From: Acholeplasma sp.
Lineage (GTDB): Bacteria > Bacillota_I > Bacilli_A > Acholeplasmatales > UBA5453
NCBI GenBank assembly: GCA_036677365.1
Contig: JAVBWN010000014.1
Location: 32,001-96,000, forward strand
Reading direction: 5' to 3'
Length of the DNA: 64,000 bases
Shown here: positions 1,962 to 22,448 of the stretch, piece by piece
How the letters are laid out: every line of letters starts with the position of its first letter
How positions within the stretch are numbered: position 1 is the first letter of the stretch
The notes under the pieces: generated by a model
What the model was told of the DNA's origin: nothing
Databases searched by the model: none
The model's input: only the letters and a program-made list of their open reading frames with translations
Translations under genes and position numbers: made by a program

Positions 1962-2076
1962 ATTTAAACCTCACCTTAAACACTTTAATAAGTCCAATTT
2001 GTTATGGTTTTTGCTTTTTTGTGAATTACTTGATTTTACCACTAAATGGCTATTCAGTAACCACAGTGTTATATGT

Positions 2077-2115
2077 TTTTCCTATTTGAGACTTCATAAA
2101 CTGGTGTTATTGAAT
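2077..2115. repeat. Cassette-boundary repeat core, copy A (accessory TTACTTGATT motif at 2026)
   Basis: ttttcctatttgagacttcataaactggtgttattgaat; 32/39 identical to copy D at 12598. Confidence 0.9.
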
Positions 2116-2186
2116 GGATGATAAAACCAAAATAGTTATATTAGATAACTTGTACGTTGACTTAATTATCTGTATGATCTCAATCA

Positions 2187-2528
2187 TTATTCATTCTTAG
2201 ATTTTAACGTTTTTAGTTCAAGTTCAACATCTCTTAAGTATTCGTCACGATGGTAGTCTCTTAAACTATTAAACTTTTTATTAATCTCACTAAATTTATG
2301 AGTTGTGTCACGATCAAAAACTTTATGATAACTTTTATCTAGGATAAGTTCTAAAAATCTACTGTCATAACTTGGTTTGCCATCATTCTCATTGAAACGA
2401 CCTTTGATATAACCTATTGGTTGTATAAATGCTTCTTCCGGACTGAATGAGTTACATTCATAATCAAACTTGTTATTAATCCTTCTTTCTAGTGTTTTTA
2501 CCATCTGCTTTGTAATAATATATTTCAT
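2187..2528 (-). CDS. Hypothetical protein (113 aa)
   Basis: ORF with strong AGGAGGA RBS; no family recognised. Confidence 0.7.
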   Translation of the reverse strand: MKYIITKQMVKTLERRINNKFDYECNSFSPEEAFIQPIGYIKGRFNENDGKPSYDSRFLELILDKSYHKVFDRDTTHKFSEINKKFNSLRDYHRDEYLRDVELELKTLKSKNE

Positions 2529-2677
2529 CTTAATTCCTCCTTATTTGATTTTTTTTAATACCCTTTGAGATTCTATTTAATGTTAAGGTATGCTTGGATT
2601 TTAATTGAGGAAATACCATGTTGACAAAGAAGTTCTCTAATTGCTCCATTCCAACCCTTAAAGTGGAAAATCAATAC

Positions 2678-3868: not shown

Positions 3869-3885
3869 TTTCTTTAAATAATAAA

Positions 3886-3976
3886 TTACTCGATTTATGC
3901 GCTATTTGAATGTCTTGTATCTAAAAATCAATATCTCAATCTTCCATTCTTGACGAGGAAACTTGTTTCATCGATT
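3886..3976. repeat. Degenerate cassette-boundary repeat, copy F
   Basis: Exact TTACTCGATT motif at 3886 followed about 55 bp later by a weak core match tcttccattcttgacgaggaaacttgtttcatcgatt. Confidence 0.45.
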
Positions 3977-4055
3977 CAATTGATATCAAATCGTCATTTT
4001 TTACTATTTAACTTAATCTCTGTAAAATTACCAAATCTATTTCAAAATCATCACA

Positions 4056-6086
4056 TTAGAGAGGTCTTAAATCCTTATCTATTACACCTAGTTCTATGAA
4101 TACCTCATCAAGTTTTTTCAACGTTTCAAATGTAAAATCCGTTGATTTAATCGCCTTACCAACCAGGTTTTCATTAACCTTCTTATTCCTAATATATTTT
4201 ACTCTATCCTCACCATGCAATAATCCTTCTAATGATTTTTCTTCAGAATCACCACCGACCAATACCTTTTGCTTAGAATCGATTTCATTCAAAATACTAA
4301 ATTTTGTCTTCGTGTCTGCATCTAAAATAATTTTGAACATTGTTTTTGAATCTTTAAGAAATTTATATAAAATTTTTGCGTTACCAGCACCTTCTAGACT
4401 GTAAATGAAGTATTTTGATAAATCAACTTTCCTTATTTTCATGTATGTTTCAAATAGAGTCTTATCACTTTTTCCTTCTACGAGTAGGTAAGTAATATTC
4501 TTATTTAGAATTAATTCTTTATAGCTATTTATTCCTATCTCGTTGATTACAGATATCGAATCGCTTATTGTTATTTGCTTAACAACTGATCCACTATCAT
4601 CAATATCAACAAAATAATAATTTTCTAGATTGTTAGGAATCATATCAATACTATTGGTGCAATAGATTACTTTATTTGTTTTTGAAAGTTCAATTAAGTC
4701 CATCAAAATTTGTTTTTGTGCATCAGGATGTAAAAATGACGCTGGTTCATCAATGATTATAATGTCATCTTTATCCATAGAATTCTTGAGAAAAATGTAT
4801 GACAGATACCATCTTCTACCTAAGCTAGTTGACTCCAATGGGATGTCAACACCATTTTTTTCTTTAATTTTATAAACAAAAGATCTGTTGTCTTCAGATA
4901 TAATTGCTGTTAATGAAAGAATTCTGTCTTTATCAAAAAGTGGAACGATTGTTGCAAGATATTTATCAATTTGATTCTTCAATTGCTTCTTTCGGCTATC
5001 AGTAATATTACTCAAATCTTTAATATCTTCGTTTTGTTGTAAAATGCCATTTTTCTTTAAATAGTTCGATACACACTTATAGATTACATTATTGCCATCA
5101 GTTCTTCTATTATAATAATCATTCGTTGTTTGAAACAACAAAGTACTTTCATTATCTAAATATAGTGCATCATAATCAATACTAGATTTTATTAAATTTA
5201 AAAAAGTGTTGTATTTTTTATCTTTCTTATCATTCTCATCATAATAATTGTTTAATCGATTATTAAACAAACGATGGATTTTTTGAACAATCCTATTAAA
5301 CTCATCAAGTGCTTTAGTAGCATTATCATAGTAATCCTTTAATTCACTATTTATTCTATCAATAGTCTTATCATACTCATCATAATTTATATCTGTAAAA
5401 GTCGCTAAAAGCGGATCAATATAAAGTGATTCTTTGCTTAAAAACCTAAGGTTGGGTACATTTATATATGGCAGTGATTGTACTTCATCATAATCAATAT
5501 TGATCTTACCCTTCTTAAAGTTATCTGACATAAACCTCTCAAGCGTATTAACAATTGTTTCCATTTTTGTTTTCGAGTCATCACTGCTACGTTCAAATCC
5601 ATAGAAATTTGTAGCGCTAACAATGTCTATACGACTGCTAGTTTTATTTTTCTTTGAAAGTTCTTCTATGGTAATTTCACTTAATTTCTTATAATAACAT
5701 TCAAAGTTTTCTACTATTTTATTTTTAAGACCTCTTAACTGATTTTCCCATTTTGAGATAGATAACTCATGTATTTTGGCTTTTACTCTAGTGGCTCTGA
5801 AATCACGATAACTTGATTCCACCTCGACAATTCTCATATCTTTATCAAACTCAACTTCATCTGAGAAGTTCTTGATTTCATCATCATTCAATTCATAAAT
5901 CAATTTGTAATTTGCTCTTTCATTGTGATGTTGATCAACTGAAAAAAACTGTTTAATCGCTCGTAGAATATTAGTTTTCCCACTACCATTCTTTCCAACG
6001 AAACAAAGAAGATTTTGCGAAAAATCTATCTCAATCGGTTTTCTAATGGATTTGTATTGACTGATTATCATCTTCTTTAATTTCAT
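4056..6086 (-). CDS. OLD-family ATP-dependent nuclease (ABC-type ATPase plus TOPRIM)
   Basis: Walker A GKNGSGKT, coiled-coil insert, signature-like SLGRRW, Walker B IIIDEPASFLHP, TOPRIM LLVEGKSD...LDAD. Confidence 0.85.
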   Translation of the reverse strand: MKLKKMIISQYKSIRKPIEIDFSQNLLCFVGKNGSGKTNILRAIKQFFSVDQHHNERANYKLIYELNDDEIKNFSDEVEFDKDMRIVEVESSYRDFRATRVKAKIHELSISKWENQLRGLKNKIVENFECYYKKLSEITIEELSKKNKTSSRIDIVSATNFYGFERSSDDSKTKMETIVNTLERFMSDNFKKGKINIDYDEVQSLPYINVPNLRFLSKESLYIDPLLATFTDINYDEYDKTIDRINSELKDYYDNATKALDEFNRIVQKIHRLFNNRLNNYYDENDKKDKKYNTFLNLIKSSIDYDALYLDNESTLLFQTTNDYYNRRTDGNNVIYKCVSNYLKKNGILQQNEDIKDLSNITDSRKKQLKNQIDKYLATIVPLFDKDRILSLTAIISEDNRSFVYKIKEKNGVDIPLESTSLGRRWYLSYIFLKNSMDKDDIIIIDEPASFLHPDAQKQILMDLIELSKTNKVIYCTNSIDMIPNNLENYYFVDIDDSGSVVKQITISDSISVINEIGINSYKELILNKNITYLLVEGKSDKTLFETYMKIRKVDLSKYFIYSLEGAGNAKILYKFLKDSKTMFKIILDADTKTKFSILNEIDSKQKVLVGGDSEEKSLEGLLHGEDRVKYIRNKKVNENLVGKAIKSTDFTFETLKKLDEVFIELGVIDKDLRPL

Positions 6087-6222
6087 ATTACACCTTCTTG
6101 ATTGTTTCTTACTTGCAACTAGATGCTGATTTTCTTTTTATAATATATGTGTAAGTATAGTGCATTCTTAAATACACGGATTCATCACTAAAAGTTTATC
6201 GTACAGCCATTAAGATATATCT

Positions 6223-6261
6223 TTTTCTCATTTGAGACATCATAAACAGTGATTATTGCAT
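6223..6261. repeat. Cassette-boundary repeat core, copy E
   Basis: ttttctcatttgagacatcataaacagtgattattgcat; separated by 3 bp from the stop codon of 6265..7020. Confidence 0.9.
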
Positions 6262-6264
6262 TCA

Positions 6265-7020
6265 TTATTTCTTAGAAATTATCAGGAATCTATGTTCGGT
6301 TGATTCAATATAACCAACTTCTTTAATTCTTTTATCTAAATCAATAAACTTATCAAAATGTCTTTCTACTGAAAAATCAATAAATTCCCAACTGATGATT
6401 TTAGCAAAATAAGCGATAGCTCCCAAATCAAAGAATTTTATTTTAGGGTAATACTCTTGTTGATCAATGACTTTAAATCCTTTATTTATTAAGCGTTGAA
6501 CTGATTTTTCAAGTGTCATTTCTGGAAATTGATCCGTATGGTTGTCATCAAAAAAAGTAGCAAGATCTTTGTTATTAAATGCACCAATTTGCTGCGTAAT
6601 AAAGATACCACCTTTTTTTAAAACACGATATACCTCATTTTCATCATATGATTCATGTCTATTAACGACCATATCAAAATGATTTGATGGAATGTTAGTC
6701 AATTGATTATTTTCTGTAATTGGGTAAACTTTAATCCCTTTAGGTGCTAGTATTTCTTGACATAGTTTAATATTAGGTTCATAAGCTTCTGTCACAGATG
6801 TTAATTGGTGTGGATGATTGAGTGTTAATAAGAACTCGCCACCACCTGTTCCCATATCAAGTAATGTATCTGTTGGGTTTAAATATTTTAAAAGGATTTT
6901 CTTGTAATCCCAAGGTAGTATTTCGTTTTCCCATCTATTATTCAAATAAGAAAAATCCCATCCCTTAAATGTATGTTCTTCTTCTTTAATTAAATACTTT
7001 TTTAGTTCGTTGTTGTACAT
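6265..7020 (-). CDS. Class I SAM-dependent methyltransferase
   Basis: FKGWDFSYL...LPWDY N-terminus, LLDMGTGGGE motif I, FDMVVNRH, VLKKGGIFITQQ. Confidence 0.88.
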   Translation of the reverse strand: MYNNELKKYLIKEEEHTFKGWDFSYLNNRWENEILPWDYKKILLKYLNPTDTLLDMGTGGGEFLLTLNHPHQLTSVTEAYEPNIKLCQEILAPKGIKVYPITENNQLTNIPSNHFDMVVNRHESYDENEVYRVLKKGGIFITQQIGAFNNKDLATFFDDNHTDQFPEMTLEKSVQRLINKGFKVIDQQEYYPKIKFFDLGAIAYFAKIISWEFIDFSVERHFDKFIDLDKRIKEVGYIESTEHRFLIISKK

Positions 7021-7038
7021 ATGTTTGCTTCCTTATCA

Positions 7039-7130
7039 ATTTGCTCATATTTACTCGATTCTACCTATCTATTACCTATACAAGTATATCATTTTCCACT
7101 TTAAGACCTCATAAACCACTATTATTGAAT
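7039..7130. repeat. Cassette-boundary repeat, copy B (full ~90 bp unit, core 7092-7130)
   Basis: Core ttttccactttaagacctcataaaccactattattgaat lies 3 bp from the stop of 7134..8288; 7039-7076 matches 8289-8326 at 31/38. Confidence 0.9.
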
Positions 7131-7133
7131 TGA

Positions 7134-8288
7134 TTATCTGTAGGTATATTTGAGATATAAATCACCTAATTTTGCTTTTTTAATCATTACTCTTTTTGGT
7201 AATTCTGGTCTTGATAATGCTAATGTACCAATTATAATCTGACGATAGTTTTCGTAAATATCAACAAACGCATCCAGAATTTCATAAACCTTAGGGATAT
7301 TTACAGTTATTTCTGATTGTATAGTATTGTCTTTAAACACGATGGTTGGTGAATATGTAGTTATATGGAAATTCTCTTTATTTCTCTTGATTGAAAAGAT
7401 TTTTAATTCATCTTTATAGCAATTCGAAATTGCATCTAACTTATCCGAAAATTGTTTCTTTTTTAACCTAACATTAACAAGTGCTGTAATCTTGATAATA
7501 TATGAAAATGCTGATGAATGTCTCTCATCTGATTTAGTCATAAATAATTCACGGATTCTTGATATAAGCATTGTCAATATTTCATCTTGCATTATAATAA
7601 TATCAGCAGCTTCAATATGTGACTTTTCAGATGTTTTTTGTCTAAATTGATATTTTTTATTATTTTTAGAATATCTCAACAACTCTCTAGATAGTCTTAT
7701 TGTTGCACCTACATACCAATCTATAGAATTAAAGTGTTCTAAAAAAAACTCTAGTAACCTTTCTTTTTTGTAAAATGTAACCAATGGTTTCACATCATCG
7801 GCGATGGTATTTAGGTTTTCATTTCTATTTCTTAATCTCTTGTTTAATTCAGAAGTAAAAACAATTACATGTGAATAATGACTGCTTATATCTATCTCTG
7901 AATATTGCCACATCCCATTAATAATAAACTCAGATAAATCTACAGATAATAAAAGTAAGTAGACTTCATTTTCTCTTATAATAGTCGATTTTCGAAGAAT
8001 CTCTAGTACTTCTGAACGTTCTAAATTGTGCCATTCAATCCTAAGAACTTCAGAAATTCTTTCTTTAACCTGAGAATAATTATCAGAAAAGTCAAACAAG
8101 AAATATCCATCATTAATCATATGATTTATTGAATTGAAAAATGCTAACTCATCAAGTGAAGAACATAATTCCGTAATTTTGCCAAATAAGAGTGAACGGA
8201 AATTTGGATCCATATTTATTCTTGGATTTATCAATTTTTCTAATCCTTGTCCATTTATAGTTCTATTCATCCTAATCACCTTTTCCAT
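7134..8288 (-). CDS. Hypothetical protein (384 aa), no family recognised
   Basis: Long ORF bounded by repeat copies B and C. Confidence 0.75.
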   Translation of the reverse strand: MEKVIRMNRTINGQGLEKLINPRINMDPNFRSLLFGKITELCSSLDELAFFNSINHMINDGYFLFDFSDNYSQVKERISEVLRIEWHNLERSEVLEILRKSTIIRENEVYLLLLSVDLSEFIINGMWQYSEIDISSHYSHVIVFTSELNKRLRNRNENLNTIADDVKPLVTFYKKERLLEFFLEHFNSIDWYVGATIRLSRELLRYSKNNKKYQFRQKTSEKSHIEAADIIIMQDEILTMLISRIRELFMTKSDERHSSAFSYIIKITALVNVRLKKKQFSDKLDAISNCYKDELKIFSIKRNKENFHITTYSPTIVFKDNTIQSEITVNIPKVYEILDAFVDIYENYRQIIIGTLALSRPELPKRVMIKKAKLGDLYLKYTYR

Positions 8289-8377
8289 ATTTGCTCACTT
8301 TAACTTGATTTAAACTATCTATTACCCTTGTTGGACTACCATTGCTTACTCATGAGTTCATAAACCATTAATCAAGG
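8289..8377. repeat. Cassette-boundary repeat, copy C (conserved left part, degenerate core retaining TCATAAAC)
   Basis: atttgctcactttaacttgatttaaactatctattacc matches copy B; TCATAAACCA at 8358 sits at nearly the same spacing as in B; abuts the stop of 8378..8782. Confidence 0.75.
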
Positions 8378-8782
8378 TTAATCAATAGATTCAAGAGTAA
8401 ACCACTCATTACCCGTTTTGAACTTGAATACAACTTCTTTTTCATCTTGGTATCTGCTTGTCAAATATGGTCCGTACTTAGCATTTATAAAGTCTACAAA
8501 CGAAAAAATATCGAAGCAATCAACTGGTTCTCTACTTATTAAGAAATATTTGTATCCTTTATCTCTTCTTTTATTAACAAAATATATAACATCTTCTTTT
8601 GAAGAACATGCACTCACGAACTTGTTTCTTAATATTTTTGGAAACACTTTATTTTTGACTGCTCTGAAGATATATGTCTTTTTCCTAAATTCGGGAAAAT
8701 CATGATACAATGATTCAAGCATTTTTCTATGCTGGTCGGTCGGATAGTTAGAACCAAGATATTCATTTAGATTTCTCGTCAA
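8378..8782 (-). CDS. Putative ADP-ribosyltransferase, R-S-E clade; true start may be ATA at 8836
   Basis: Motifs in the expected order: YIFRA, FVSACSS, YQDEKEVVF. Frame is open upstream to an AGAGGA RBS at 8843-8848. Confidence 0.6.
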   Translation of the reverse strand: MTRNLNEYLGSNYPTDQHRKMLESLYHDFPEFRKKTYIFRAVKNKVFPKILRNKFVSACSSKEDVIYFVNKRRDKGYKYFLISREPVDCFDIFSFVDFINAKYGPYLTSRYQDEKEVVFKFKTGNEWFTLESID

Positions 8783-8914
8783 AACCAGTAGTCCAAGACC
8801 AACAAAGTAAGCATCATAATCAAAAGTATTGTCTATAATAATTCCTCTTTTCTATTCAGAATACTGTATATAACCTTATTACCTAGATATTAGATTTTTC
8901 ATTTTCTGTTGTGT

Positions 8915-8948
8915 AAAAAAAGGGGTCATTATTAACTCTAATACCCCT
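8915..8948 (-). terminator. Intrinsic terminator of the R-M operon
   Basis: Minus strand aggggt...acccct stem followed by a T-run, just after the stop at 8956. Confidence 0.6.
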
Positions 8949-8955
8949 AATTCAT

Positions 8956-9564
8956 TCATAATATTGATAAATAATACCACTTATCATCTAATAATTTGTC
9001 TCTAACATCCTTTGAAAGAGCAACAGATCTATCCGCGTTTGTTCTTTCATCATCTTGCTTAACAGTAATTAAATCAACAGTTTGAATATCCGAGATGAAA
9101 TCTGAGAGTAGCTCGATTTTTGCTTTTTGTGTCAAACTTACAAGACTTAATTCCTTCACCTTATTATTTATTAAACTTAATATATGTTTGTTGGAGGGAT
9201 TATGATCAAAGTGAAAAAATTTTCCAGAAAGCTCTCGCTGTATTGACCCTTTCGAGTTGCTAGAAAACATTGCCCAGTTTCTATCAAGTGTTTTTTTCAA
9301 TATACCTACCCTATCTTCTTCAATGGTAAAGGGTATATTTTTATTCCCTAATTCGATCAACGCTGAACCGCTAATCCTGCTTCGTACAAATCTAGTACTT
9401 AATTTCATCCACGAACCACATAAAGTCGAGTTACCACCTCCACCTTTAAGTAGCTCCATCAAAAATAAATCATCATATTTAGCATTAAATATCTGAAAAT
9501 AAAAAACAGCAGTATTTCTAATCCATACATCCCTAGACATATTACTTGAAATAGTTTTCCCCAT
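8956..9564 (-). CDS. Hypothetical protein coupled to the R-M operon, possible His-Me-finger-like nuclease
   Basis: Start overlaps the upstream stop; FHFDHNP...DLITVKQDD resembles EHxxP...ITxxED HNH variants (weak). Confidence 0.55.
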   Translation of the reverse strand: MGKTISSNMSRDVWIRNTAVFYFQIFNAKYDDLFLMELLKGGGGNSTLCGSWMKLSTRFVRSRISGSALIELGNKNIPFTIEEDRVGILKKTLDRNWAMFSSNSKGSIQRELSGKFFHFDHNPSNKHILSLINNKVKELSLVSLTQKAKIELLSDFISDIQTVDLITVKQDDERTNADRSVALSKDVRDKLLDDKWYYLSIL

Positions 9565-10727
9565 TAATTTAACTCCTTATGTATACTTGATAATCTTGAC
9601 TTATTTAAAACAGTGTATACATGCATGGATATAGTCGGTTTCTTTTGACGAACTTTAGAAAACTCAAATGTAACATAACCTGCACTAATCTTAACATCGT
9701 TAATTTTAAGAAAGTATAAACTGTTAATGTCATACCGAGTAATTTTCGTCATTCCTCTTCCCTTTTTCTCATTGCTAGCATTATAAAGCATGGAAACCAT
9801 AACCCCATCAAATTTAGCACCTTGTGCATTTAAAACTAGTTTCAAATTATCAGGAGTGAAAACTGGATAATTATTTCTTCCAGCCATCCTAATTTCTGAA
9901 CCGGAAATATCAATGTTATCAAGCAAATGGGTAGAAGGTAAAGCGAAGATTTTACTGGAGTCTTGTAACAAATATAAATCTAGTTTCTTGGTTCTATATG
10001 TCGCAGATACCAATTCATCGGCAGTATCTTTATCAATTTCATTTCCGATTTTATAATTTGATCCGGCCATTTTATAAACATCTGTTACAGTATTGAATTT
10101 TTCTATGTACTTTAAAAATCCTGGTAACTCAGTCTTGATTTTTTCTGAAGGGATGAGCTTTCCATCTTCTTTGTAATCTAAATCATACTCTCCCATTTTG
10201 GCTTTTGAATCTTTAATCTCTAATCTAATTCTATAACCTTCATTAACGAATATTGCATCAATAGAGGATGAATCTCCATATTGAAGCAAAACTACACCAG
10301 ATTTTGAACCATGGTAAATATATCGTGGGAACTGACCTTCAAGTTCTCCACCTTTTGCTTTAATCAATGAAGTCAAAAGATGTGTAGGCACATTATCACG
10401 ATTATCGTCAGCATCAATAAAATATTCTAATTCTAACAGGTTTGCAACTGTCTGTATAACAAAGCATTCATTTAATATAGCAGGTTGTAATGCTTGCTGC
10501 TTTGAAAATTGCTTAGCAAACTCTGCTTGTGCAGCATTTGATACCTCCAGTGTTTTTTTTAATGATGATAATTCATTGATAAATGAATCGTAATCTGAAT
10601 ACAGTTGGAAATTTTCCTTATAAAAAACGTCTAATTTTCTAATGTTTGATTTAGAAGCCACTAACTTAGTTAACTTCCCATCATTATATATTTTGTTGAA
10701 TAGTAGAACTAACGCTTTATTCGTCAT
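9564..10727 (-). CDS. Putative type II restriction endonuclease, PD-(D/E)XK fold
   Basis: Overlaps the methylase stop; E...SIDAIF...RLEIKD catalytic-like motif. Confidence 0.6.
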   Translation of the reverse strand: MTNKALVLLFNKIYNDGKLTKLVASKSNIRKLDVFYKENFQLYSDYDSFINELSSLKKTLEVSNAAQAEFAKQFSKQQALQPAILNECFVIQTVANLLELEYFIDADDNRDNVPTHLLTSLIKAKGGELEGQFPRYIYHGSKSGVVLLQYGDSSSIDAIFVNEGYRIRLEIKDSKAKMGEYDLDYKEDGKLIPSEKIKTELPGFLKYIEKFNTVTDVYKMAGSNYKIGNEIDKDTADELVSATYRTKKLDLYLLQDSSKIFALPSTHLLDNIDISGSEIRMAGRNNYPVFTPDNLKLVLNAQGAKFDGVMVSMLYNASNEKKGRGMTKITRYDINSLYFLKINDVKISAGYVTFEFSKVRQKKPTISMHVYTVLNKSRLSSIHKELN

Positions 10728-12276
10728 GGCTCACCTCATAGTTTTTATGAAGTAGTTCCATGTCTTTCGCATACTTAGGAAACAATACCTCATTTATTTT
10801 GAGTCGATATTCTTCAGGGAACTTAATACTCTCTTGTTGTTCTCCTGCGTTTAATTTGTATGAAACATAGTCAGATTCCTTATCAATCATTGAAGCAATT
10901 GTATCTTCAATTTCTATTATTTTTTCAAACAATTCCTCATGATATGGTATAGAATAAAGTATTCGTTTCGAAAAGAGAATACCGCCATCTGAGAAACGCC
11001 ACCACATGTATGCGTAACTTGAGTTTAACAAAGAATATAACAAATCAAACGAAGCTTCATTCTTAGCATATATTATGAAGTATCCTTTTCTGTTTAAGGA
11101 TTTTTTACTAGCAAGTGTAAAATATCTTGCCGAAGTAGAGACGTACAACTTATAATCATTACTTTGAAGTAATGGCTCAAATTGAATAAGATCAGACAAG
11201 TATTTCACATCACCATGACTAATCTCATTTACCATTGGTTCAAGTTCTCTAAATGCTTTAATTGGTCGATCTAGCATTTGGACATTGGATCCTAATTTAC
11301 TTCTTAAAAACTCCAAATTTATAACTTCAAATCTTTGATCAGTTCTAAATCTAATAAGGTGTGTCAATTTAAACCCATTATGACCATTTCTCTTTAAGGA
11401 TGTAATTGAAGCTCTAACACCATTTGCTGAGTTTGTGTTAAATATACCATGCTTTTTTCCACTAAATAACGTTCCTGGAACATTATCAAATGAAAATATC
11501 TCACCATAGAAATTATCTGATAGTTTTGATCTAAGTTTTGAGAATTTAGCAGCAACAAGATACGACTGGGGAGATACTATAACTGCATTTTCACAATAAT
11601 TGATAATCTTGTTCATAAATGCCGCATACAAGTCCTTTGCTTGAAGTAATACATCGTCCACATTCCATGACTTATTAAATTGCTTAATCAATGCATATGG
11701 TGGATTAGTTATCACAGATACTCCTGCTGGAAGTGACACTCTTTTATCTAGGAAATCTGCATGTACAACATTTATTTTATGTGAGACTTCAACTTCGAGT
11801 AAAATATCTATCTTTTTCAAACATATATTTAACGCAATACCATCAGCGTCATATAGATATAATTTACCATCCATAATAAAATCAATCGGATCGATTCCTT
11901 TTGTATCTTTAAGCATACTTAGAACCTGTATGATTAGGTTTCCTGTACCACAACCAACATCTGCTATTGTTAGGATTTTGTTTTCTAATAATAACCTAGA
12001 CATGACAAGACTAACATCTTTTGGTGTATAGTATTTCCCCATATCCTTTTTCGAAATTTTATTTGTGTGTGCTAGTCCAATTTCATACAGTTCTCCGAGG
12101 TTATCAAAATCTAAGAGGACATTTTTGGACAACTCTACGATTCGTTTATCAGTTAGAAAACTTAGTATAACTTCCCAAGTTTTTGTCAATCCAATTTCAT
12201 CTATCATTTTCAAATAGTGGTCGATAGTAAAGGTGTTGATATTTATTTTTTGATTTGGTTTGACTGTTTTGCTCAT
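10717..12276 (-). CDS. N6-adenine DNA methyltransferase, gamma class
   Basis: GKYYTP, DVGCGTGNL motif I, ITNPPY motif IV, LLNSSY in the C-terminal TRD region. Confidence 0.9.
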   Translation of the reverse strand: MSKTVKPNQKININTFTIDHYLKMIDEIGLTKTWEVILSFLTDKRIVELSKNVLLDFDNLGELYEIGLAHTNKISKKDMGKYYTPKDVSLVMSRLLLENKILTIADVGCGTGNLIIQVLSMLKDTKGIDPIDFIMDGKLYLYDADGIALNICLKKIDILLEVEVSHKINVVHADFLDKRVSLPAGVSVITNPPYALIKQFNKSWNVDDVLLQAKDLYAAFMNKIINYCENAVIVSPQSYLVAAKFSKLRSKLSDNFYGEIFSFDNVPGTLFSGKKHGIFNTNSANGVRASITSLKRNGHNGFKLTHLIRFRTDQRFEVINLEFLRSKLGSNVQMLDRPIKAFRELEPMVNEISHGDVKYLSDLIQFEPLLQSNDYKLYVSTSARYFTLASKKSLNRKGYFIIYAKNEASFDLLYSLLNSSYAYMWWRFSDGGILFSKRILYSIPYHEELFEKIIEIEDTIASMIDKESDYVSYKLNAGEQQESIKFPEEYRLKINEVLFPKYAKDMELLHKNYEVSHDE

Positions 12277-12542
12277 ATTAAACCCACCTTCCCTTTATAA
12301 TCTTTACATTTAATTCATTATCATTTAGCCAACTTTTATTACAACAATATAAGTAGAATATATATAATTATATATATGCTGTCATCAATTAGATTTTATC
12401 ACAGAACCGTAGAATTTGCTATTTTTGTGTTCGAGTGTAATCGCTTAAACTATCAATGCACTATTCGAAACATAATCATGAGAATTCCGAATTCTAAAAT
12501 CTGTAAATGAACATACTCAATAATTACATTAATTTTTATATT

Positions 12543-12636
12543 CTACTCGATTTTTCCACTATTTACCACTCTTTCAACTAGTTGAAAAGGGTATCGATTT
12601 TCCTATTTAAGACATCATAAACATGCATTATTGATT
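12543..12636. repeat. Cassette-boundary repeat, copy D (core 12598-12636)
   Basis: ctactcgatttttccacta, then a 16 bp palindrome tttcaactagttgaaa, then core ttttcctatttaagacatcataaacatgcattattgatt. Confidence 0.9.
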
Positions 12637-12741
12637 AGATAAATTGTATCACAAAAGCCCTTGTAATTCTACCTTTAATTAAAATTAAAGCACCTTAAAG
12701 TTTATGATCACTCATCTTCATCAGAGACATCAATATTCAAC

Positions 12742-15668: not shown

Positions 15669-15682
15669 AGATGTAATTTCCC

Positions 15683-15886
15683 CTATTTATTTTTTAATGT
15701 ATCGATTGGTTTTTCTTTGACTTTAATCTCTTTTAATGTTAAAAACTTTTCTAGAGATTCTTCAGTTACCCTTAACTGATTCCCAAGTCTAATTGCTTTT
15801 AATTCTCCAGTGGCGATATACTTATTAATGGTTTTACGTGAGACGGACAACATCTCACATACTTCAAATACGCTATATATTTTCAT
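15683..15886 (-). CDS. Excisionase-family HTH protein
   Basis: YSVFEVCEMLSVSRKTINKYIATGELKAIRLGNQLRV. Confidence 0.85.
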   Translation of the reverse strand: MKIYSVFEVCEMLSVSRKTINKYIATGELKAIRLGNQLRVTEESLEKFLTLKEIKVKEKPIDTLKNK

Positions 15887-16626
15887 GATCTTTTAGTTTT
15901 CCCATTTGCTTTCTCCAAAATTTCGTTGATATATCGGATACCTTTATCCGAGACAACGATTTGTGTTGTTTTCTTTTCTTTGTCTCCGATTTGGCTAATC
16001 CATGTGAAGTATCTGAAGCAACCATTCTCCACTAGACTTGCGGTTGGACGACAAAACTCATCAATGGCACCACTTTGCCTAAGATGACCTAATAATTGAG
16101 TATATGTAGTTTTGTACTTAAGTTTTTCATGCACTCTACGTAACGGAACCATCGAAGTGTTATCTGTAAACTCAAAGTAGAGCTTAGCACCTTCTTTTAA
16201 TTCTTCGAGTTGACCTTCTAAGACATTGATCTTTCTGGTTTTTTTCTCGAAACTAGATATCAATTCATCTTGTTCTTCTTGTGGTAAAATCATCCCTTTA
16301 GTATAACCACAGTAGGAAGTCTTCATATCGCTAATAATTGTTAGGATTGATTTTGCATAGTACTCTGCATCTTTTAACTTGGAGAAGTTTTTTATGACTT
16401 CAATATCCTCTTCGGCTACACCAGCTAATTTTTTAACATTTGCACCAAACTTAACATCAAAATAGTTAAGATTTCCCCTATACTTCTCAGGCAAATCTTT
16501 GATTTCCACATCAAATAATTTTTTCATATCATTGAGTTCAATAAAATAACAATGTAGTTTTTCGCTAAATATGATTCGTACGGTTTTGCCATTATAAACC
16601 GTGACCGTGAATACTTTATTTTTCAT
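15883..16626 (-). CDS. Phage antirepressor-like protein with KilAC-type C-terminus
   Basis: C-terminal LLGHLRQSG...PT..LVENGCF...TTQIVVSDKGIRYI; start set at ATG 16626 after an AGGAAGG RBS. Confidence 0.7.
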   Translation of the reverse strand: MKNKVFTVTVYNGKTVRIIFSEKLHCYFIELNDMKKLFDVEIKDLPEKYRGNLNYFDVKFGANVKKLAGVAEEDIEVIKNFSKLKDAEYYAKSILTIISDMKTSYCGYTKGMILPQEEQDELISSFEKKTRKINVLEGQLEELKEGAKLYFEFTDNTSMVPLRRVHEKLKYKTTYTQLLGHLRQSGAIDEFCRPTASLVENGCFRYFTWISQIGDKEKKTTQIVVSDKGIRYINEILEKANGKTKRS

Positions 16627-17560
16627 GTCTACCTTCCTTTTTGGTCTTAAGTATTGCATTTGAGACTAGTTCATTTGTACCTGATTTCATTTTTTCTACT
16701 AAATGTGAGTAAATCTGTGTGCTTGTAATGCTGGAATGTCTTAGAGATTCTTTAACTTCCAATATGGATGCGCCTTGGATAAGGGATAGTGTGGCAAATG
16801 AATGCCTAGTTGAGTGAGCAGAGAATGCTCTACTATCTAGACCTATGGAACGAAAAGCATCTTTAACCATAGTCCTAATAACAGCTGTCTTCATACGAAT
16901 CTCTTGACCGCTACGACGGTATGTTGTAAATAGTGGATTATTGCGGTCGTCTAAATTGGTATTATCTCTAGTTTCTAGATAGGCAAGTAGTATTTCGTAA
17001 ACATCATCTGTAAGTTTAACAAAATTATCCTTGTCATCTCTACCTTTTCCTTGGATGTATAAAACATAACCATTACCTATGACATCAATATCTTCAATGT
17101 CAGCTCGTTCCACTTCAATTGCTCTCAATCCTGTTGTAAAAAGTAATGCGAGAATAGCTAGATTCCGTTTCCCTTTAACTGTGTTGACTTTTTTTCGAGC
17201 ATTATGAATCACTTTTCTTATATCTTCCTCAGTTAATGGTTGTCTTTTATAAGTTGTTGCTACTTTTACACCTTTAACTGCATAAGTGATATCATCATCA
17301 ATTCCGTTTAATTTTAGATATCTATAAAATCCACGAAGAACAACAAGTGATTTTTGGATAGATGATGAAGATAACTTCTTTTTAACTAGATAATCCTTAT
17401 ACGCTAGAATCACATTCCTATTTGGGTTAGTTATGTTATACGTTTCTAGATAATCTTGATAAGCATGAAGTGACTTTCGATATGATTCCTTAGATATCTC
17501 TTTTAAGTCTAGGAACGAGATGTACTCTGAAATTTTCTCATTTAGATCATAGTTCATCAT
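16616..17560 (-). CDS. Tyrosine recombinase, XerC/D-like (314 aa)
   Basis: TGLRAIE (R), GKG (K), HSTRH (HxxR), LRHSSITSTQIY (H, Y); short N-terminal core-binding domain. Confidence 0.92.
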   Translation of the reverse strand: MMNYDLNEKISEYISFLDLKEISKESYRKSLHAYQDYLETYNITNPNRNVILAYKDYLVKKKLSSSSIQKSLVVLRGFYRYLKLNGIDDDITYAVKGVKVATTYKRQPLTEEDIRKVIHNARKKVNTVKGKRNLAILALLFTTGLRAIEVERADIEDIDVIGNGYVLYIQGKGRDDKDNFVKLTDDVYEILLAYLETRDNTNLDDRNNPLFTTYRRSGQEIRMKTAVIRTMVKDAFRSIGLDSRAFSAHSTRHSFATLSLIQGASILEVKESLRHSSITSTQIYSHLVEKMKSGTNELVSNAILKTKKEGRHEK

Positions 17561-17852
17561 CCATCACCCATCTACTTTCTCTTCTTATACCTAAATTTCT
17601 TCGCTCTTTTTGATATTCGAGTTCTCCTTTACAGAGGGTTTCAAAGTCTGTATTTAGGATGTTTGCTAAATCATTTAAGAACACAACATCCATCCGATGA
17701 CCTTTAATACCTTGTTCGATTTGGTAGTAATATGGTTTTGACAACAACATATTATTTGTAACCTCATAAATCGATAATTTTGCATTTTTTCGTAACTCAT
17801 ACAAATACATCCTTAAGTGGGGTCTTTGTTTTGCTTTATTGGTTTCATTCAC
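17547..17852 (-). CDS. Cro-like XRE HTH regulator
   Basis: YLYELRKNAKLSIYEV...YYYQIEQG; GTG at 17852 after an AGGAGG RBS; divergent from the repressor. Confidence 0.75.
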   Translation of the reverse strand: MNETNKAKQRPHLRMYLYELRKNAKLSIYEVTNNMLLSKPYYYQIEQGIKGHRMDVVFLNDLANILNTDFETLCKGELEYQKERRNLGIRRESRWVMDDEL

Positions 17853-17932
17853 AACACATCTCCTCCTGGTTGTGATAATTCTAACAAGCAAATAAAGAAT
17901 TCCTTGATGTAGGAAAAACAAGGATTTTAAAC

Positions 17933-18083: not shown

Positions 18084-18096
18084 AAAGGTAGGTGAG

Positions 18097-18759
18097 GTGA
18101 ACTTAATGAATAATTCTTTGAACCAGGTTGTTGGTAAGAACATAAAGTCATTGCGTACATATGCAAATATTACTCAGTCAAAATTAGCTGATGTTTTAAA
18201 AGTATCTGTAGCTACAATTTCTCTATATGAAAAAGGAGAGCGTTCGGTTCCACTTGAACATTTAGCAACTCTTTCCAGAGTATTCAATGTGAAGATTGAT
18301 GAGTTATGTTCAATTTCTATATTTGATCAACACCATGAGAACGAAGTCTTCTTTGAACATTTCAAAATAGGCACTTCTACTATTTATACGTTTGGAGAGT
18401 CACGTATATCTAATCCACATTCAATGTATTTCACCATAGAAGATTCTAATGGTGACACATTAGTTTTTCTGAGATCTTCTGAGGTAACTGAGGGAGTCAT
18501 GTTGGTATCTGAAAGTCAAATTATGAGCACATTAGAAAGAATCGATATTGACGATCTAAAGAACAAGCGACTCTTCTTAACTACGATTTCAACGTACGAA
18601 AGACAAGATGGTAGAGAATCAGTTTACACATACACCGATCATAATGGTAAGAACATGATAATGAAGAATAGAGCTATGTTTATTTACTATGGTTATTTGA
18701 TTGCTCGGATCAAGCATCTAGCAAAAACTGAAGAGTTTTTCTTCGAAATTAAATCTTGA
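18097..18759 (+). CDS. CI-like XRE-family repressor
   Basis: IKSLRTYANITQSKLADVLKVSVATISLYEKGER HTH; divergent from the Cro-like gene. Confidence 0.85.
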   Translation: MNLMNNSLNQVVGKNIKSLRTYANITQSKLADVLKVSVATISLYEKGERSVPLEHLATLSRVFNVKIDELCSISIFDQHHENEVFFEHFKIGTSTIYTFGESRISNPHSMYFTIEDSNGDTLVFLRSSEVTEGVMLVSESQIMSTLERIDIDDLKNKRLFLTTISTYERQDGRESVYTYTDHNGKNMIMKNRAMFIYYGYLIARIKHLAKTEEFFFEIKS

Positions 18760-18769
18760 TATGTATGCT

Positions 18770-18869: not shown

Positions 18870-19097
18870 ATGAACAGCTATAATATTTTGAAATCAGCAC
18901 TTTATGAATCAATCGTTTTATCTTTGTTAAAACGAAACATTTTATCGCTTGATGAAGCCATCGGTTGCTTAAATGCGATAGATAAAGACATAAAGTCAAC
19001 GAATGACTTGAATAAAGAAATGATTATGGTAAAACAAAAAAGACCTACCAATTGTAGTATTGGTAAGTCAGACTTGGAGGATTGTAATCATGAATAA
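18870..19097 (+). CDS. Small hypothetical protein leading the recombinase operon
   Basis: AGGAG RBS; overlaps the start of the first recombinase. Confidence 0.55.
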   Translation: MNSYNILKSALYESIVLSLLKRNILSLDEAIGCLNAIDKDIKSTNDLNKEMIMVKQKRPTNCSIGKSDLEDCNHE

Positions 19098-20706
19098 AGT
19101 AATTAATGTTATTCGACCAATACAAGCACACACACCAGGAGAAAATGGCGGTGTGTTTAAGCGCAAAAGAGTTGCTGCTTATGCCAGGGTATCTACAGAT
19201 TATGAAGACCAACTAAACTCATATAAAGCACAATGTGATGAGTACACGAAAATTATTACTTCAAACTCAAATTATACATTCGCAGGCTTATTTGCAGATC
19301 AAGGATTATCTGGTACTCAAGCTAAGAAAAGACCAGAGTTTATGAAGATGATTGAATGTGCAAAGAATGGTGAAATCGATTTAATCTTAACCAAATCAAT
19401 TTCACGATTTGGACGTAATACGGTTGATGTCATCACTTATATTAGAGAACTCAGAGAAATCAATGTTGAGATATATTTTGAAAAAGAAAACATTTCTTCT
19501 CTTGATCCAAAAATTGACTTTATGCTTACCATTTTATCATCAATTGCTCAAGAGGAATCAAGAGCAATTTCAACAAACGTTAAGTGGGCATACGACAAAA
19601 AATTCAAGAATGGGATTGTAGATCCAAGACGCTTTTTTGGTTATGAAGTTGTTGATGGTAAACAGGTCATCAAGGAAGACGAAGCAGTTGTAGTTAGACA
19701 AATTTTTACCTTGGCTTTAAAGAGATACAACGTCAATGATATCGTTAAAACATTAAATGTTGCGGGTATTAAAACACTAAAAGGTACCACTTGGAAGTAT
19801 GGTTCAATTCGTAGTATTTTACAAAATGAAAAGTACTGTGGTGATGCTCTTTTAAGGAAAACAGTCTGCATTGATTACTTGACAAGGAAGACCGTCCAAA
19901 ACAACAACATTGCTGATAAGTATTACGTCTCTAACAATCATGAACCAATCATTGATAAGGAAACATTTGATTCAGTTCAGTTGTTGCTTAAGGATAAATC
20001 CGATGTCGTTAGAAATTTGAACAAGACCACCAAATATCCTCTTACAGGCATTCTTTACTGCCCTAAGTGTGGTAGAACCTTAAAACGACAACAAGTCAAT
20101 CGTGGGGCAAACATGACGGTTGTATTAAACTGTAATCATTCCTATGGGAATGACCACATCTGTAAGAGTGGTTCTCCTAAATATGACCTAGTCGTCAATG
20201 CAGCAATAGATTCTATTCATGAAATCTATGCAAGTGATCAAGTCTTATCAAATCTCTTTGATGTGTTTGATAATAATGTTGCTTTAAATGATTTACGAGC
20301 AGAGTTGAATGCGTTAAAAGAATCAAACAAGCATCTTCACTCACTTCATCATGATGATCCTAGCAATAACGATATCATCAATCAAATTCTTCATAATGAC
20401 ACCAAGATTGAAACTCTTCAGAAAGAGCTCATCAGCAATTTGTCTTCTTCTGTTAGACTTGACTACATCAAATCAATTGTGAAAAATGAGCAAATGGAGA
20501 TTGACTCTATCAAGTTCAAAGATATCTATTCCCTGGTTTTAGCTGATGAACATAAAATCACATTTGTCATTTCGCCAACGAAACCCATGAACGCACTCGT
20601 TGATGATATTCCAACTCTACTTGAACTTGAATCCATTCTAAGCAAAATGTACATCTCTAAAGATGAACAAAGCGGTATTTTTTACGAGGTTAAGATATAT
20701 GAATAA
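19090..20706 (+). CDS. Large serine recombinase with zinc ribbon
   Basis: AAYARVST, DQGLSGT...RPEF, TKSISRFGRN, ILQNEKYCG, HEPII, CPKCG...C...C. Confidence 0.92.
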   Translation: MNKVINVIRPIQAHTPGENGGVFKRKRVAAYARVSTDYEDQLNSYKAQCDEYTKIITSNSNYTFAGLFADQGLSGTQAKKRPEFMKMIECAKNGEIDLILTKSISRFGRNTVDVITYIRELREINVEIYFEKENISSLDPKIDFMLTILSSIAQEESRAISTNVKWAYDKKFKNGIVDPRRFFGYEVVDGKQVIKEDEAVVVRQIFTLALKRYNVNDIVKTLNVAGIKTLKGTTWKYGSIRSILQNEKYCGDALLRKTVCIDYLTRKTVQNNNIADKYYVSNNHEPIIDKETFDSVQLLLKDKSDVVRNLNKTTKYPLTGILYCPKCGRTLKRQQVNRGANMTVVLNCNHSYGNDHICKSGSPKYDLVVNAAIDSIHEIYASDQVLSNLFDVFDNNVALNDLRAELNALKESNKHLHSLHHDDPSNNDIINQILHNDTKIETLQKELISNLSSSVRLDYIKSIVKNEQMEIDSIKFKDIYSLVLADEHKITFVISPTKPMNALVDDIPTLLELESILSKMYISKDEQSGIFYEVKIYE

Positions 20707-22171
20707 TGTTGATGTCATCAAAGTCATTCAAAAACCAGGTGTTAAGAAAAGAGTGGTTGGTTATGCGAGAGTATCTACTTCTGATGAACATCAAGATAGT
20801 TCATTTCGTGTTCAGTTAGACGAACTAGAAAAATACATTAGAGATAATCCATCTTATGAATTTATCGGAATGTTCAAAGATAGAAAAAGTGGAACGACCA
20901 CCAAACATCGAAACGAATTTAATGTAATGATTGATTTAGCAAGTGCTGGTGAAATTGATGTCATCATCACGAAATCAATAACCAGGTTCGCTCGTAATAT
21001 TCTAGATACTATATTACTTGTTAGAAGTTTGAAACTGAATAACGTTGAGATAATTTTTCAAAAAGAGAACATATCTTCACTAGATCCACAAATGGAATTC
21101 GTTTTATCTGTATTAGCAATGCACGCTGAAGAGGAATCGAAAAACAATTCAGAAAACACAAAATGGAGCATCAAGCGGAAAATACATAATGGTGGCAATC
21201 TTACAAGTCATATTTATGGATATAGGATAAAAGGGGAAATCTGGGAGGTTTTCGAACCAGAGGCTAGAATAGTTCGCATGTTATTTGACATGTATCTAAA
21301 TAATGTATCTTACAAAATGATGATAGAAAAACTTCATCAATTAAAGATAAAAACATTTACAGGTAAAGACAAATGGCACCAAGGAACCATTGAGCAAATG
21401 TTGCAAAACGAAAAGTATGCAGGACATATGGCATTAGGAAAAACATATATTGTCGATGGTACATCTCTTAGGACAAAACGCATAAATCAAGATGAGCATT
21501 TTGTCTTCAATCATCATACTCCAATCATCTCTCCAGAAACATTTAATGCCGCCATGAATCTTCGTTCAAAGCGAACTAGAAACGAATTACTACATTATGT
21601 ACCTGCTTTAGAAAGAGTCACTCCATTCTATCAATTTGTTTATTCTGCAGAAAATCAAAGATATCTAAAATATGTCGTAGAAAGACCTAAAGGTAAATAT
21701 GAAATTCCCACGTTGTTCTGTTATAACCAGGATAAAGCAAATAGAGTGATGATAACAGTAAATAATTTATTTCTTCTACTCAATGATTCCTTGAATAACA
21801 CTAAACATAAAATTGGAGATACTACATCAATGATTAGCGATTACATCACATCATGTATCCAAGAAATAGATACCGAGTTGACCACTTCTGCAGTTTATAG
21901 AATTGAAAATCTATCAAAACGCACTTTACTTTTACAAAGCAAAAAGAAGTTACCAAGTTACATTCGTGGCATTAAGGCTTTCAAGAAAGCTGATTCAATA
22001 GAGGATATGAAGAAATATATTAGATTGGTTAGGATCAATGATTATAATAGTTATAGCATTTACCTAAATGTATTGAGCGGTAATGAAAGTGAATATCATC
22101 TTTTCGATTCTGAAATGAGTCTAAAACTTAAATACAGCATCCAAAATGTAAAATACTCAGTTTACATTTGA
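20699..22171 (+). CDS. Second large serine recombinase, zinc ribbon degenerate
   Basis: VGYARVST, KSITRFARN, LQNEKYAG, HTPII; no CxxC in the C-terminal region. Confidence 0.9.
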   Translation: MNNVDVIKVIQKPGVKKRVVGYARVSTSDEHQDSSFRVQLDELEKYIRDNPSYEFIGMFKDRKSGTTTKHRNEFNVMIDLASAGEIDVIITKSITRFARNILDTILLVRSLKLNNVEIIFQKENISSLDPQMEFVLSVLAMHAEEESKNNSENTKWSIKRKIHNGGNLTSHIYGYRIKGEIWEVFEPEARIVRMLFDMYLNNVSYKMMIEKLHQLKIKTFTGKDKWHQGTIEQMLQNEKYAGHMALGKTYIVDGTSLRTKRINQDEHFVFNHHTPIISPETFNAAMNLRSKRTRNELLHYVPALERVTPFYQFVYSAENQRYLKYVVERPKGKYEIPTLFCYNQDKANRVMITVNNLFLLLNDSLNNTKHKIGDTTSMISDYITSCIQEIDTELTTSAVYRIENLSKRTLLLQSKKKLPSYIRGIKAFKKADSIEDMKKYIRLVRINDYNSYSIYLNVLSGNESEYHLFDSEMSLKLKYSIQNVKYSVYI

Positions 22172-22257: not shown

Positions 22258-22300
22258 AGTCTACCAATCAATTAGCAGTTTTCTCGGTAGACTCTTTTTT
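22258..22300 (+). terminator. Terminator of the recombinase operon
   Basis: agtctacc...ggtagact stem followed by a T-run; faces the tRNA terminator (atgccc/gggcat) at about 22305-22327. Confidence 0.55.
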
Positions 22301-22374
22301 ATACAAAAAAATGCCCAATAAGGGCATAAATTTGTGAAATTAGCTCGTTTTTTCGAACCAATTCAAGATTAGTT

Positions 22375-22448
22375 TGGAGGCCCCGACCGGATTTGAACCG
22401 ACGATCAGGCAGTTGCAGTGCCGTGCCTTACCACTTGGCTACAGGGCC
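22375..22448 (-). tRNA. tRNA-Cys (GCA)
   Basis: Minus strand GGCCCTGTAGCCAAGTGGTAAGGCACGGCACTGCAACTGCCTGATCGTCGGTTCAAATCCGGTCGGGGCCTCCA; 74 nt cloverleaf with encoded CCA. Confidence 0.95.

Follow-up and report, generated by a model that had tools for sequence, protein, structure and literature searches.

The Cre/loxP system of phage P1 is formed by a single phage tyrosine recombinase with no arm-binding domain and by short sites in which inverted arms flank an asymmetric center, and in laboratory lox variants it is the sequence of the center that decides which sites pair with each other. In pdif modules neighboring sites alternate in orientation. The Xer1-type recombinases of Mycoplasma are responsible for surface-protein switching, in which inversion between oppositely oriented sites moves a promoter. 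The present work concerns a gene for a Xer-like tyrosine recombinase, and the short repeated sites on which its product may act, in a prophage of ~46 kb that lies at a tRNA-Cys gene of Acholeplasma sp. (assembly GCA_036677365.1, 1.97 Mb in 37 contigs; genome G000 below). The window, i.e., the whole stretch of 64,000 nucleotides that was analyzed, corresponds to positions 32001–96000 of contig JAVBWN010000014.1 (C14), and coordinates refer to the window unless a contig is named.

The relevant parts of three reports describe pdif modules of Acinetobacter plasmids as accessory modules that are bracketed by dif-like sites and vary between related replicons (PMC6449649, PMC5790767, PMC13141974), and a further report, in the part that deals with the subject, places integron components in phages (PMC9892861). 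The sections on MrpR of phage SPbeta describe a protein with a tyrosine recombinase fold that binds a 15-bp repeated intergenic element, SPBRE, derived from nine ChAP-seq peaks; crucial arginine/histidine residues of MrpR are replaced by serine, valine, and asparagine, and the excision of SPbeta still depends on the serine recombinase SprA (PMC10516654).

Judged from comparative sequence data, there is about an even chance that the protein encoded at the present locus is an active phage-borne recombinase of the Cre/Xer type, and not an integrase, whose likeliest substrates would be the dif-like cores inside the prophage and through which gene cassettes would reassort slot by slot. At the level of the sites the system would be most like Cre/lox or Xer/dif, and in its genome organization most like pdif modules or integrons. 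No description of such a phage cassette system was found in the open-access full-text literature.

Inverted arms and a 6-nt center, as in the simple sites of Cre/lox and Xer/dif, are present in both core classes described below. As in Cre/loxP, a single phage-encoded tyrosine recombinase without an arm-binding domain is combined with short inverted-arm sites around a center; however, 2–6 natural sites per genome, with their own centers, occur here at cassette boundaries, and the protein is Xer-like, not Cre-like. With Xer1 systems the locus shares a Xer-like enzyme, a Mollicutes-related lineage and a cluster whose genes are each preceded by a short site, whereas all sites are direct here and no inversion was seen. 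Several dif-like sites that bracket accessory modules, with half-sites of the ATAA...TTAT type, are also the mark of pdif modules. These rely on the host XerC/XerD while the present element encodes its own recombinase, its sites lie on one strand instead of alternating, the replicon is a temperate phage and the cargo consists of defense genes. Integron-like traits include a one-orientation array of mostly promoterless cassettes, each bounded by a site, a tyrosine recombinase gene in the vicinity and, before the first site, a box that resembles a promoter. In contrast to integrons, the protein is not IntI, the sites are double-strand-type cores with no predicted hairpin, the recombinase gene is 4 kb away in the lytic operon, and the sites keep a fixed order with distinct centers. 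Finally, a phage that integrates by serine recombinase and combines a recombinase-fold protein with a short repeated intergenic element recalls SPbeta as portrayed in those sections of the MrpR report; there, however, the protein is a repressor that has lost catalytic residues, whereas in the present protein the catalytic residues are intact and conserved, and the repeats are where the exchange points lie.

The recombinase and the prophage end

The 314-aa protein matches Phage_integrase (PF00589) with 77 bits (cut-off 27.1) over residues 109–288 and Phage_int_SAM_1 with 37.5 bits (cut-off 22.3) over residues 21–84. In the Pfam scan no domain beyond these SAM-like core-binding and catalytic domains, and in particular no arm-binding domain, was found. 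An alignment of 17 homologs of 38–100% identity shows no variation at R146, K172, H249, R252, H275, and Y284. Having passed the PF00589 cut-off and possessing the catalytic R, K, H-x-x-R, H, and Y, the protein is a member of the tyrosine recombinase superfamily. A first-pass annotation, made from the letters of the stretch, had described an intact Xer-like enzyme with this residue set and no obvious arm-binding domain or IntI-type insertion; that the enzyme is intact, Xer-like and devoid of an arm-binding domain is confirmed.

Sequence comparison with the Protein Data Bank gives archaeal XerA-type enzymes, E. coli XerD and XerH as the closest proteins; the alignment with IntI4 is limited to the C-terminal ~70 residues. 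NCBIfam equivalog scores are far under the cut-offs for XerD (133.6 vs. 329.6), XerC (128.6 vs. 335.15), XerA (126.8 vs. 220) and the integron-integrase model TIGR02249, which includes the IntI-specific extra segment (75.6 vs. 265 bits), and therefore the protein is Xer-like in build yet belongs to none of these families. Neither does it resemble a housekeeping XerC/XerD in its setting: it is prophage-borne, two other proteins of the host are better candidates (PF00589 scores of 185.7 and 149.5 bits), and a dif-like site lies apart from the prophage on contig C15. Among the 75 annotated phage records with a match, none holds a relative above 33% identity, and PHROGs labels the protein "integrase" and nothing finer.

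A role as the integrase of the prophage is, however, very unlikely. A lambda-type integrase would be expected to carry an arm-binding domain and to be encoded at the attachment end, whereas this gene lies 4.8 kb from that end (the first pass had put it at about 5 kb) in the early lytic operon. The intervening ~4.8 kb encode a Cro-like protein, a CI-like protein and two large serine recombinases. The latter, which the first pass had correctly placed at the boundary of the element, stand directly at its end, adjoining the tRNA-Cys gene, and are found upstream of the tyrosine recombinase in 28 of 29 related loci. The same annotation had named a duplication of the tRNA-Cys 3' end at the left end of the element as the sign of an ordinary integrase. 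An 82-nt, 85% identical direct repeat does bound the prophage, but what is duplicated is the stretch just downstream of the tRNA, beside the serine recombinases: the repeat spans the terminator region directly downstream of tRNA-Cys plus ~4–5 nt of the tRNA 3' end, so that tRNA-Cys retains a terminator after integration. A repeat of such length is more typical of tyrosine integrases, this one includes a 15-nt exact stretch containing an 8-mer, CAATTCAA, that is also present in the left core flank, and an excisionase-family gene occurs two genes downstream of the recombinase. On the other hand, CAATTCAA is separated from GTTT by 5 nt in the end repeat and by 8 nt in the cores; the right arms are also unlike. 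Taken as a whole, the account in which an ordinary integrase recombines the duplicated sequence beside tRNA-Cys can hardly be credited.

Dif-like cores and cassette replacement

The repeat to which the first-pass annotation had assigned the recombinase is real: a 24-nt pattern matches four times in the window against 0.11 expected, and none of 100 shuffles reached four. A whole-genome profile search returned four strong copies (12598–12640, 7092–7134, 6223–6265, and 2077–2119; E 5e-15 to 4e-12) and a weak, decayed one (E 0.029), all in the C14 prophage. In gene sense the copies read (a)ATTCAATAA-YNNNNG-TTTATGA-n-GyCTyAAA followed by a tail of ~65–85 nt. The core (hereafter window-type core), TCAATAA-YNNNNG-TTTATGA, has a 7-6-7 layout in which the arms form an imperfect inverted pair (TCAATAA/TCATAAA), and in 38 aligned copies AATAA...GTTTATGA is invariant or nearly so while the center is variable. 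A copy in another genome (locus L159, G120 contig C7), ~100 nt upstream of a methyltransferase gene, carries the perfectly symmetric arms TCATAAA-TAGTGG-TTTATGA and reveals which arm bases mirror each other. With inverted arms around a 6-nt center, the repeats have the layout of tyrosine-recombinase core sites and resemble the likely dif of the host. This dif, on contig C15 near 3038 (minus strand), reads tacctATAA-TGTATA-TTATGTAAacc (...ATAA-TGTATA-TTATGTAAACC); its inner half-sites match those of the phage cores, and the ATAA–TTAT spacing is 6 nt in dif vs. 7 nt in the cores.

The four intact cores share one orientation. They lie in the region that separates the replication genes from the gene for the small terminase subunit, and every one of them is at the boundary of a cassette. 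Their centers all differ (TGCATG, TAGTGG, TCACTG, and CACCAG). In 12 arrays with 37 typed centers, no center is repeated within an array (3.9 repeats expected; 73 of 20,000 shuffles as low) and the order of centers shows no conflict (6.7 expected; 1 of 20,000 shuffles as low); because the arrays share descent, the shuffle tests overstate independence and these counts describe a pattern and are not probabilities. The shared order is TGCATG or TGTACG; TAGTGG; TCACTG; TTAGGG, TTAGCG, or TTACTG; CTACAG. Centers CACCAG (three arrays) and GTAGCG (one array) are each last in their own array and never occur together.

In the proposed mechanism, the recombinase would bind and cut the dif-like cores, and matching centers would be required for recombination. 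Since each core in a genome has its own center, productive exchange would be expected only between equivalent cores of two genome copies, either sister genomes or those of a co-infecting or resident relative. The outcome would be that the cassette between two cores is swapped and gene order is kept. The position of the gene after that of the Cro-like protein suggests that the enzyme would be made on induction.

Cassettes do differ between close relatives, and the edges of the differences fall on the cores. Contigs of four public runs were compared with window 1–20000. One contig of 10,348 nt from DNA run X8 matches window 1222–2115 and 7109–13689 with few differences; in between it has 2,872 other letters instead of the 4,993 of the window (2116–7108), the sole matching island being 6216–6258. 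All of these edges (2115, 6216, 6258, and 7109) are on the cores of sites 4, 3, and 2, where the 24-nt pattern matches span 2089–2112, 6235–6258, and 7104–7127. Pieces from run X9 span 2072–2112 and begin at 7109, and run X15 contains all four edges. A second X8 contig covers 15505–20000, recombinase gene included, with four differences. Because the X8 contigs match the enzyme and backbone and differ between cores, the variant phage has essentially the same enzyme and backbone with other cassettes in two slots. At the loose end of the X8 sequence at 7109, the center TAGTGG is joined to a tail of a different class.

Comparisons with other genomes provide similar cases. A 96% identical copy of the 251-aa methyltransferase cassette occurs in G120 between cores with the same centers, TAGTGG and TCACTG. 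Identity to the window in 30-nt windows from ~7060 to ~6281 is mostly 93–100% (three at 83–90%) and drops to background (~0.6) just outside both cores. At site 4 identity with G015, a genome of the same genus, begins at the core and continues from there, with unrelated sequence upstream, and at site 3 the sequence of G120 matches the window upstream and not downstream. An ungapped comparison of flanks, crude and sensitive to indels, served as a pointer only. In L153, with an 83% identical recombinase, the backbone is syntenic through orf166 and different genes follow site 1.

A purely regulatory role of the protein, which would bind the cores as MrpR (YopR) does in SPbeta, is improbable, with a slight chance of being right. 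The cores head each cassette in the transcribed direction and, according to the sections of the report that deal with it, MrpR joins a recombinase fold to a repeated element in a serine-recombinase phage; but MrpR has lost crucial catalytic residues (PMC10516654). Here, all six are invariant, which points to selection for catalysis, and an operator role alone leaves the coincidence of cassette edges with cores unexplained.

Some features of the array do concern transcription. An extended -10-like box, TGTGATACAAT, occurs at 12643–12653, where it precedes the ATAA in the core of site 1 by 11 nt, and relatives keep it as TGTATAAT, TGGTACAAT, or TGGTATAAT. RNA-library contigs run across sites 2 and 4 into variant cassettes; the array may be a single transcription unit that starts at site 1. 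The longest RNA-library contig, from run X15, ends at 12611, inside site 1. Contigs of this run skip window 12674–20000 (the early operon with the recombinase gene) and 1–1334, from which no inference on expression was drawn.

Two other roles of the repeat were considered and rejected. Regarding a structured RNA, RNAalifold predicted no pairs in 32 copies and Rfam gave no match; an attC-like imperfect hairpin is likewise not predicted for these copies, the folding of single-stranded DNA having been approximated with RNA energy parameters. As for a sigma-70 promoter or terminator, 102 promoter-like sites were counted vs. 107 expected and the cassette region gave no terminator, in a scan that is uninformative in this AT-rich DNA.

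Core classes and recombinase clades among relatives

A protein search returned 39 cluster representatives at 74–100% identity, followed by a step to ~50–54% (some of these records being named Acholeplasma) and a long tail at 34–42%. The order serine recombinase(s), (CI), Cro, tyrosine recombinase, (ANT), Xis-like gene is kept in 28 of 29 loci of 33–90% identity, and thus the tyrosine recombinase is a core gene of the phage lineage, always beside serine recombinases. Of 2.9 million viral contigs, four were found to contain the window-type core; a homolog is encoded on three of them and the fourth is a 4.3-kb fragment.

Phages with more distant homologs have a second core class of 10-6-10 layout, typically TTACCGATAA-TGCTTG-TGAACGGTAA, with 8 of 10 mirrored positions complementary and the outer six bases forming a perfect inverted repeat. 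Both classes share the ATAA inner left arm and the Y-NNNN-G center format; the profile of window-type copies does not detect the second class. The gene-proximal site of this class sits directly after the Xis-like gene and has the center TGCTTG in many divergent contexts, and the distal site has TACTTG or TCCTTG, a placing of centers similar to that in the window-type arrays.

The distribution of both classes was counted in loci with at least 1.1 kb downstream of the recombinase gene, some of which represent the same phage in two collections. At identities of at least 50%, a window-type core is present downstream in 5 of 7 loci (the two misses have less than 1.5 kb downstream) and a second-class core in 0 of 7. 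Between 36 and 49.9% there are 50 loci: 35 have a second-class core, which in 34 is located at +700 to +1000 nt, and none has the window type; below 36% the figures are 1 of 55 for the window type and 0 of 55 for the second class. No second-class core lies on the opposite strand among the evaluated loci. Near-full-length loci of at least 36% identity hold 48 distinct recombinase sequences, that of the window included, and in a quick tree the window-type core is restricted to two clades while the second class fills the remaining ones.

The same correspondence occurs inside genome G000. A second prophage (contig C25, 55883–66683) encodes a recombinase paralog of 39% identity and contains two second-class sites, with center TGCTTG 956 nt after the recombinase gene and TCCTTG ~9 kb further, and window-type sites are confined to the C14 prophage. 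In these comparisons recombinase clade and core type go together across relatives, including within one host genome. The first pass had held that homologs which occur without the repeat and do not bind it would speak against a link between enzyme and repeat. Homologs do occur without this particular repeat, but most carry a related one.

Within 301 genomes of the order, 23 have a homolog at E ≤ 1e-50 and 16 of these hold an exact match to either site pattern; a seventeenth (G029, locus L013) holds a variant site. With the strict window-type pattern alone, five genomes have both pattern and recombinase, eight the pattern only and 18 the recombinase only, an agreement that improves once the second class is included.

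The most far-reaching form of the proposal, which is tentative and has clearly less than an even chance, is a natural recombinase-mediated cassette exchange: a Xer-like enzyme of the lytic cycle and ordered, mutually incompatible dif-like sites would permit slot-for-slot swaps of defense cassettes between resident and incoming phage, and separate networks able to coexist in one host would be formed by the two core classes, which differ in their recombinase clade. If true, a resident prophage and an incoming relative could trade cassettes without deleting or scrambling the genome, which bears on the open question of how temperate phages exchange defense and accessory genes so fast. Mosaicism at module boundaries in this lineage would then have a dedicated enzymatic cause, as opposed to chance homologous or illegitimate recombination, and a third natural cassette system, phage-borne and with ordered, apparently incompatible sites, would stand beside integrons and pdif modules. 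The system is compact and well defined, consisting of one protein of 314 aa and cores of 26 nt, and might also be a source of new orthogonal recombinase/site sets for genetic engineering.

Besides the shared descent of the arrays, a number of observations weigh against an action of the recombinase on the repeats, a claim of the first pass that has comparative support in the clade/core-type match and the replacements at cores. The loose second-class pattern matches genome-wide about as often as in a reversed control, and for this reason a match was counted solely if both its position and its extended sequence fit, as is the case at 11 loci of 10 genomes (954–984 nt from the gene end). Fifteen of the 50 mid-range loci and 6–7 of the 23 recombinase-positive genomes have no recognizable site; a generalized regular expression and a TGAAC-centered inspection of the site-less loci found no third site type. 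Conversely, sites survive without the enzyme: 8 of the 13 genomes with the window-type pattern have no homolog at E ≤ 1e-50, and two of them, G120 and G253, keep intact serine-recombinase pairs and five and two sites, respectively, with no tyrosine recombinase. Co-distribution cannot, on these sequences, separate the tyrosine recombinase from the co-occurring serine recombinases, Cro, CI, and Xis-like protein. Moreover, in two pairs the same downstream cassette stands behind different centers (TAGTGG vs. TTAGGG; GTAGCG vs. CTACAG), so that either exchange does not always take place between identical centers or cassettes can also insert as units; strict center matching is not a complete account. 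Homologous recombination within the ~110-nt conserved elements is a possible source of the breakpoints there.

Intact window-type sites also persist in prophage remnants. In G284 (L157, contig C25) host metabolic genes run into a truncated replication gene, and in G130 and G088 (L160–L162) serine-recombinase fragments of 80–128 aa remain; these remnants have lost the early region and retained the cassette arrays.

In another explanation the recombinase has a different target and is unrelated to the cores. These would be used by a serine recombinase, the Xis-like protein or the host XerC/XerD (as in the pdif modules of Acinetobacter), or would be mere conserved boundary and leader sequences at which homologous recombination occurs. 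This is decidedly unlikely. In its favor, G120 and G253 (L163) have sites and intact pairs of serine recombinases but no tyrosine recombinase, an arrangement repeated in a 4.3-kb viral contig (L154), and since all backbone genes co-occur, co-distribution is unspecific. XerC/XerD candidates are encoded by the host itself, whose dif-like site resembles the cores in its inner arms, and the conserved TGTGATACAAT box upstream of site 1, together with the RNA-library contigs across sites 2 and 4, indicates that the elements also lie in transcribed leaders. Large serine recombinases, however, pair unlike attP and attB, not identical short sites, and the ATAA...TTAT half-sites are of the Xer type. The arms are conserved across very divergent phages while tails and flanks change fully, a conservation that homologous recombination does not need, and core class tracks recombinase clade inside a single host genome.

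An explanation that keeps the same enzyme and sites is that they were selected for closing circles of terminally redundant injected DNA or for resolving multimers, as Cre/loxP in P1, with cassette swapping as a by-product. It is unlikely, though worth keeping in view, as is its corollary that each of the sites with differing centers near the packaging start recombines only with its own duplicate. The recombinase is kept in 28 of 29 loci with or without a cassette array (in L016 and L093, for example, two sites are all that separates the replication genes from the small terminase subunit gene), the sites cluster just upstream of the latter gene, and the early-operon position suits a need right after injection; no Erf/RecT-type recombinase was recognized among the early genes scanned. 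If packaging follows the late-gene direction, however, the sites fall on the wrong side of the packaging start, and cores that separate even single-gene cassettes are left unexplained.

Features of the prophage and its cassettes

The prophage extends over C14 ~8,000 to 54,000, where the G+C content is ~0.28–0.35 vs. ~0.39 in the flanks, and its features are listed in Table 1. Two serine recombinase genes and the CI-like gene, on the opposite strand, are followed on the minus strand by the Cro-like gene, the tyrosine recombinase, the ANT-like open reading frame (ORF), the excisionase-family helix-turn-helix (HTH) gene, a C5 methylase, a replisome organizer and orf166. Next are ~11 kb of accessory genes, the small terminase subunit gene, a ParB-methylase and ORFs up to C14 ~8,300; these last, unscanned ORFs are taken to be late genes. 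As the first pass had indicated, the recombinase ORF overlaps both neighbors: 14 nt are shared with the HTH ORF upstream and 44 nt with the ORF downstream. Their designations, "Cro-like" and "antirepressor", are weak, both being drawn from matches under the cut-off (HTH_19 for the former, 21.2 vs. 30.2 bits) and from position. The true start of the Cro-like gene is probably an internal ATG near 17810, as read from the translation. Rfam over 1–24000 detected tRNA alone.

Table 1. Coordinates of the recombinase gene, neighboring genes, repeated sites, and cassette slots in the window.
Feature	Position	Strand	Description
Xer-like tyrosine recombinase	16616..17560	-	314 aa, ATG start; intact ORF
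Cro-like HTH gene	17547..17921	-	First of early operon; weak HTH matches; position opposite CI-like gene
CI-like repressor	18097..18759	+	HTH_3
Putative antirepressor	15883..16659	-	Weak KilAC/ANT match; ANT 20 bits, under 25.3 cut-off
Excisionase-family HTH_17 (Xis-like) protein	15683..15886	-	67 aa; conserved beside recombinase in relatives
Large serine recombinase 1	19060..20706	+	Domain match
Large serine recombinase 2	20663..22171	+	Domain match
tRNA-Cys	22375..22448	-	At prophage end
Prophage-bounding direct repeat	22298..22379 (right copy)		82 nt, 85% identical; right copy C14 54298-54379; left copy C14 8020-8101, outside window
Site 1	12532..12643	-	Core TCAATAA-TGCATG-TTTATGA 12615-12634 + tail; after backbone gene orf166
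Site 2	7026..7137	-	Core 7109-7128, center TAGTGG, + tail
Site 3	6157..6268	-	Core 6240-6259, center TCACTG, + tail
Site 4	2011..2122	-	Core 2094-2113, center CACCAG, + tail; then orf162 and small terminase subunit gene
Decayed fifth copy	8315..8368	-	Right arm and tail kept; left arm and center shortened; between 134-aa and 384-aa ORFs
Cassette slot 1	7134..12276	-	Type II methylase (519 aa), then ORFs of 387, 202, 134, 384 aa
Cassette slot 2	6265..7020	-	Lone methyltransferase gene (251 aa)
Cassette slot 3	2187..6086	-	OLD/Gabija-like ATPase-TOPRIM (676 aa), Ser/Thr kinase (396 aa), 113-aa ORF

The 82-nt end repeat is unusually long for integration by a serine recombinase. Just inside the left prophage end (C14 8150–8275), on the strand opposite to the phage genes, there are four TGGTAA(G/A)-type words similar to the GGTAAATAGTGGAAAA words that the cassette-site tails contain; both sets may be binding sites of a common accessory protein.

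With respect to the cassettes, the decayed fifth copy may be a fossil joining two former ones. Three genes in window 2678–7020 match models of one candidate system, the methylation-associated defense system, namely mad2 (the 251-aa methyltransferase), mad3 (the OLD-like ATPase) and mad6 (the kinase, which also matches PD-T4-6 models), and neighbor one another across two adjacent slots. A single-gene cassette occurs between TCACTG and CTACAG sites in L163 (7556–8059, minus strand), and the same element is present in L156 and L154. Its product, of 167 aa, belongs to the aminoglycoside-2''-adenylyltransferase family (PF10706, 82.6 bits), and in L163, a contig of 13.4 kb without a tyrosine recombinase, it comes after two intact serine recombinases and an RNase III-like gene.

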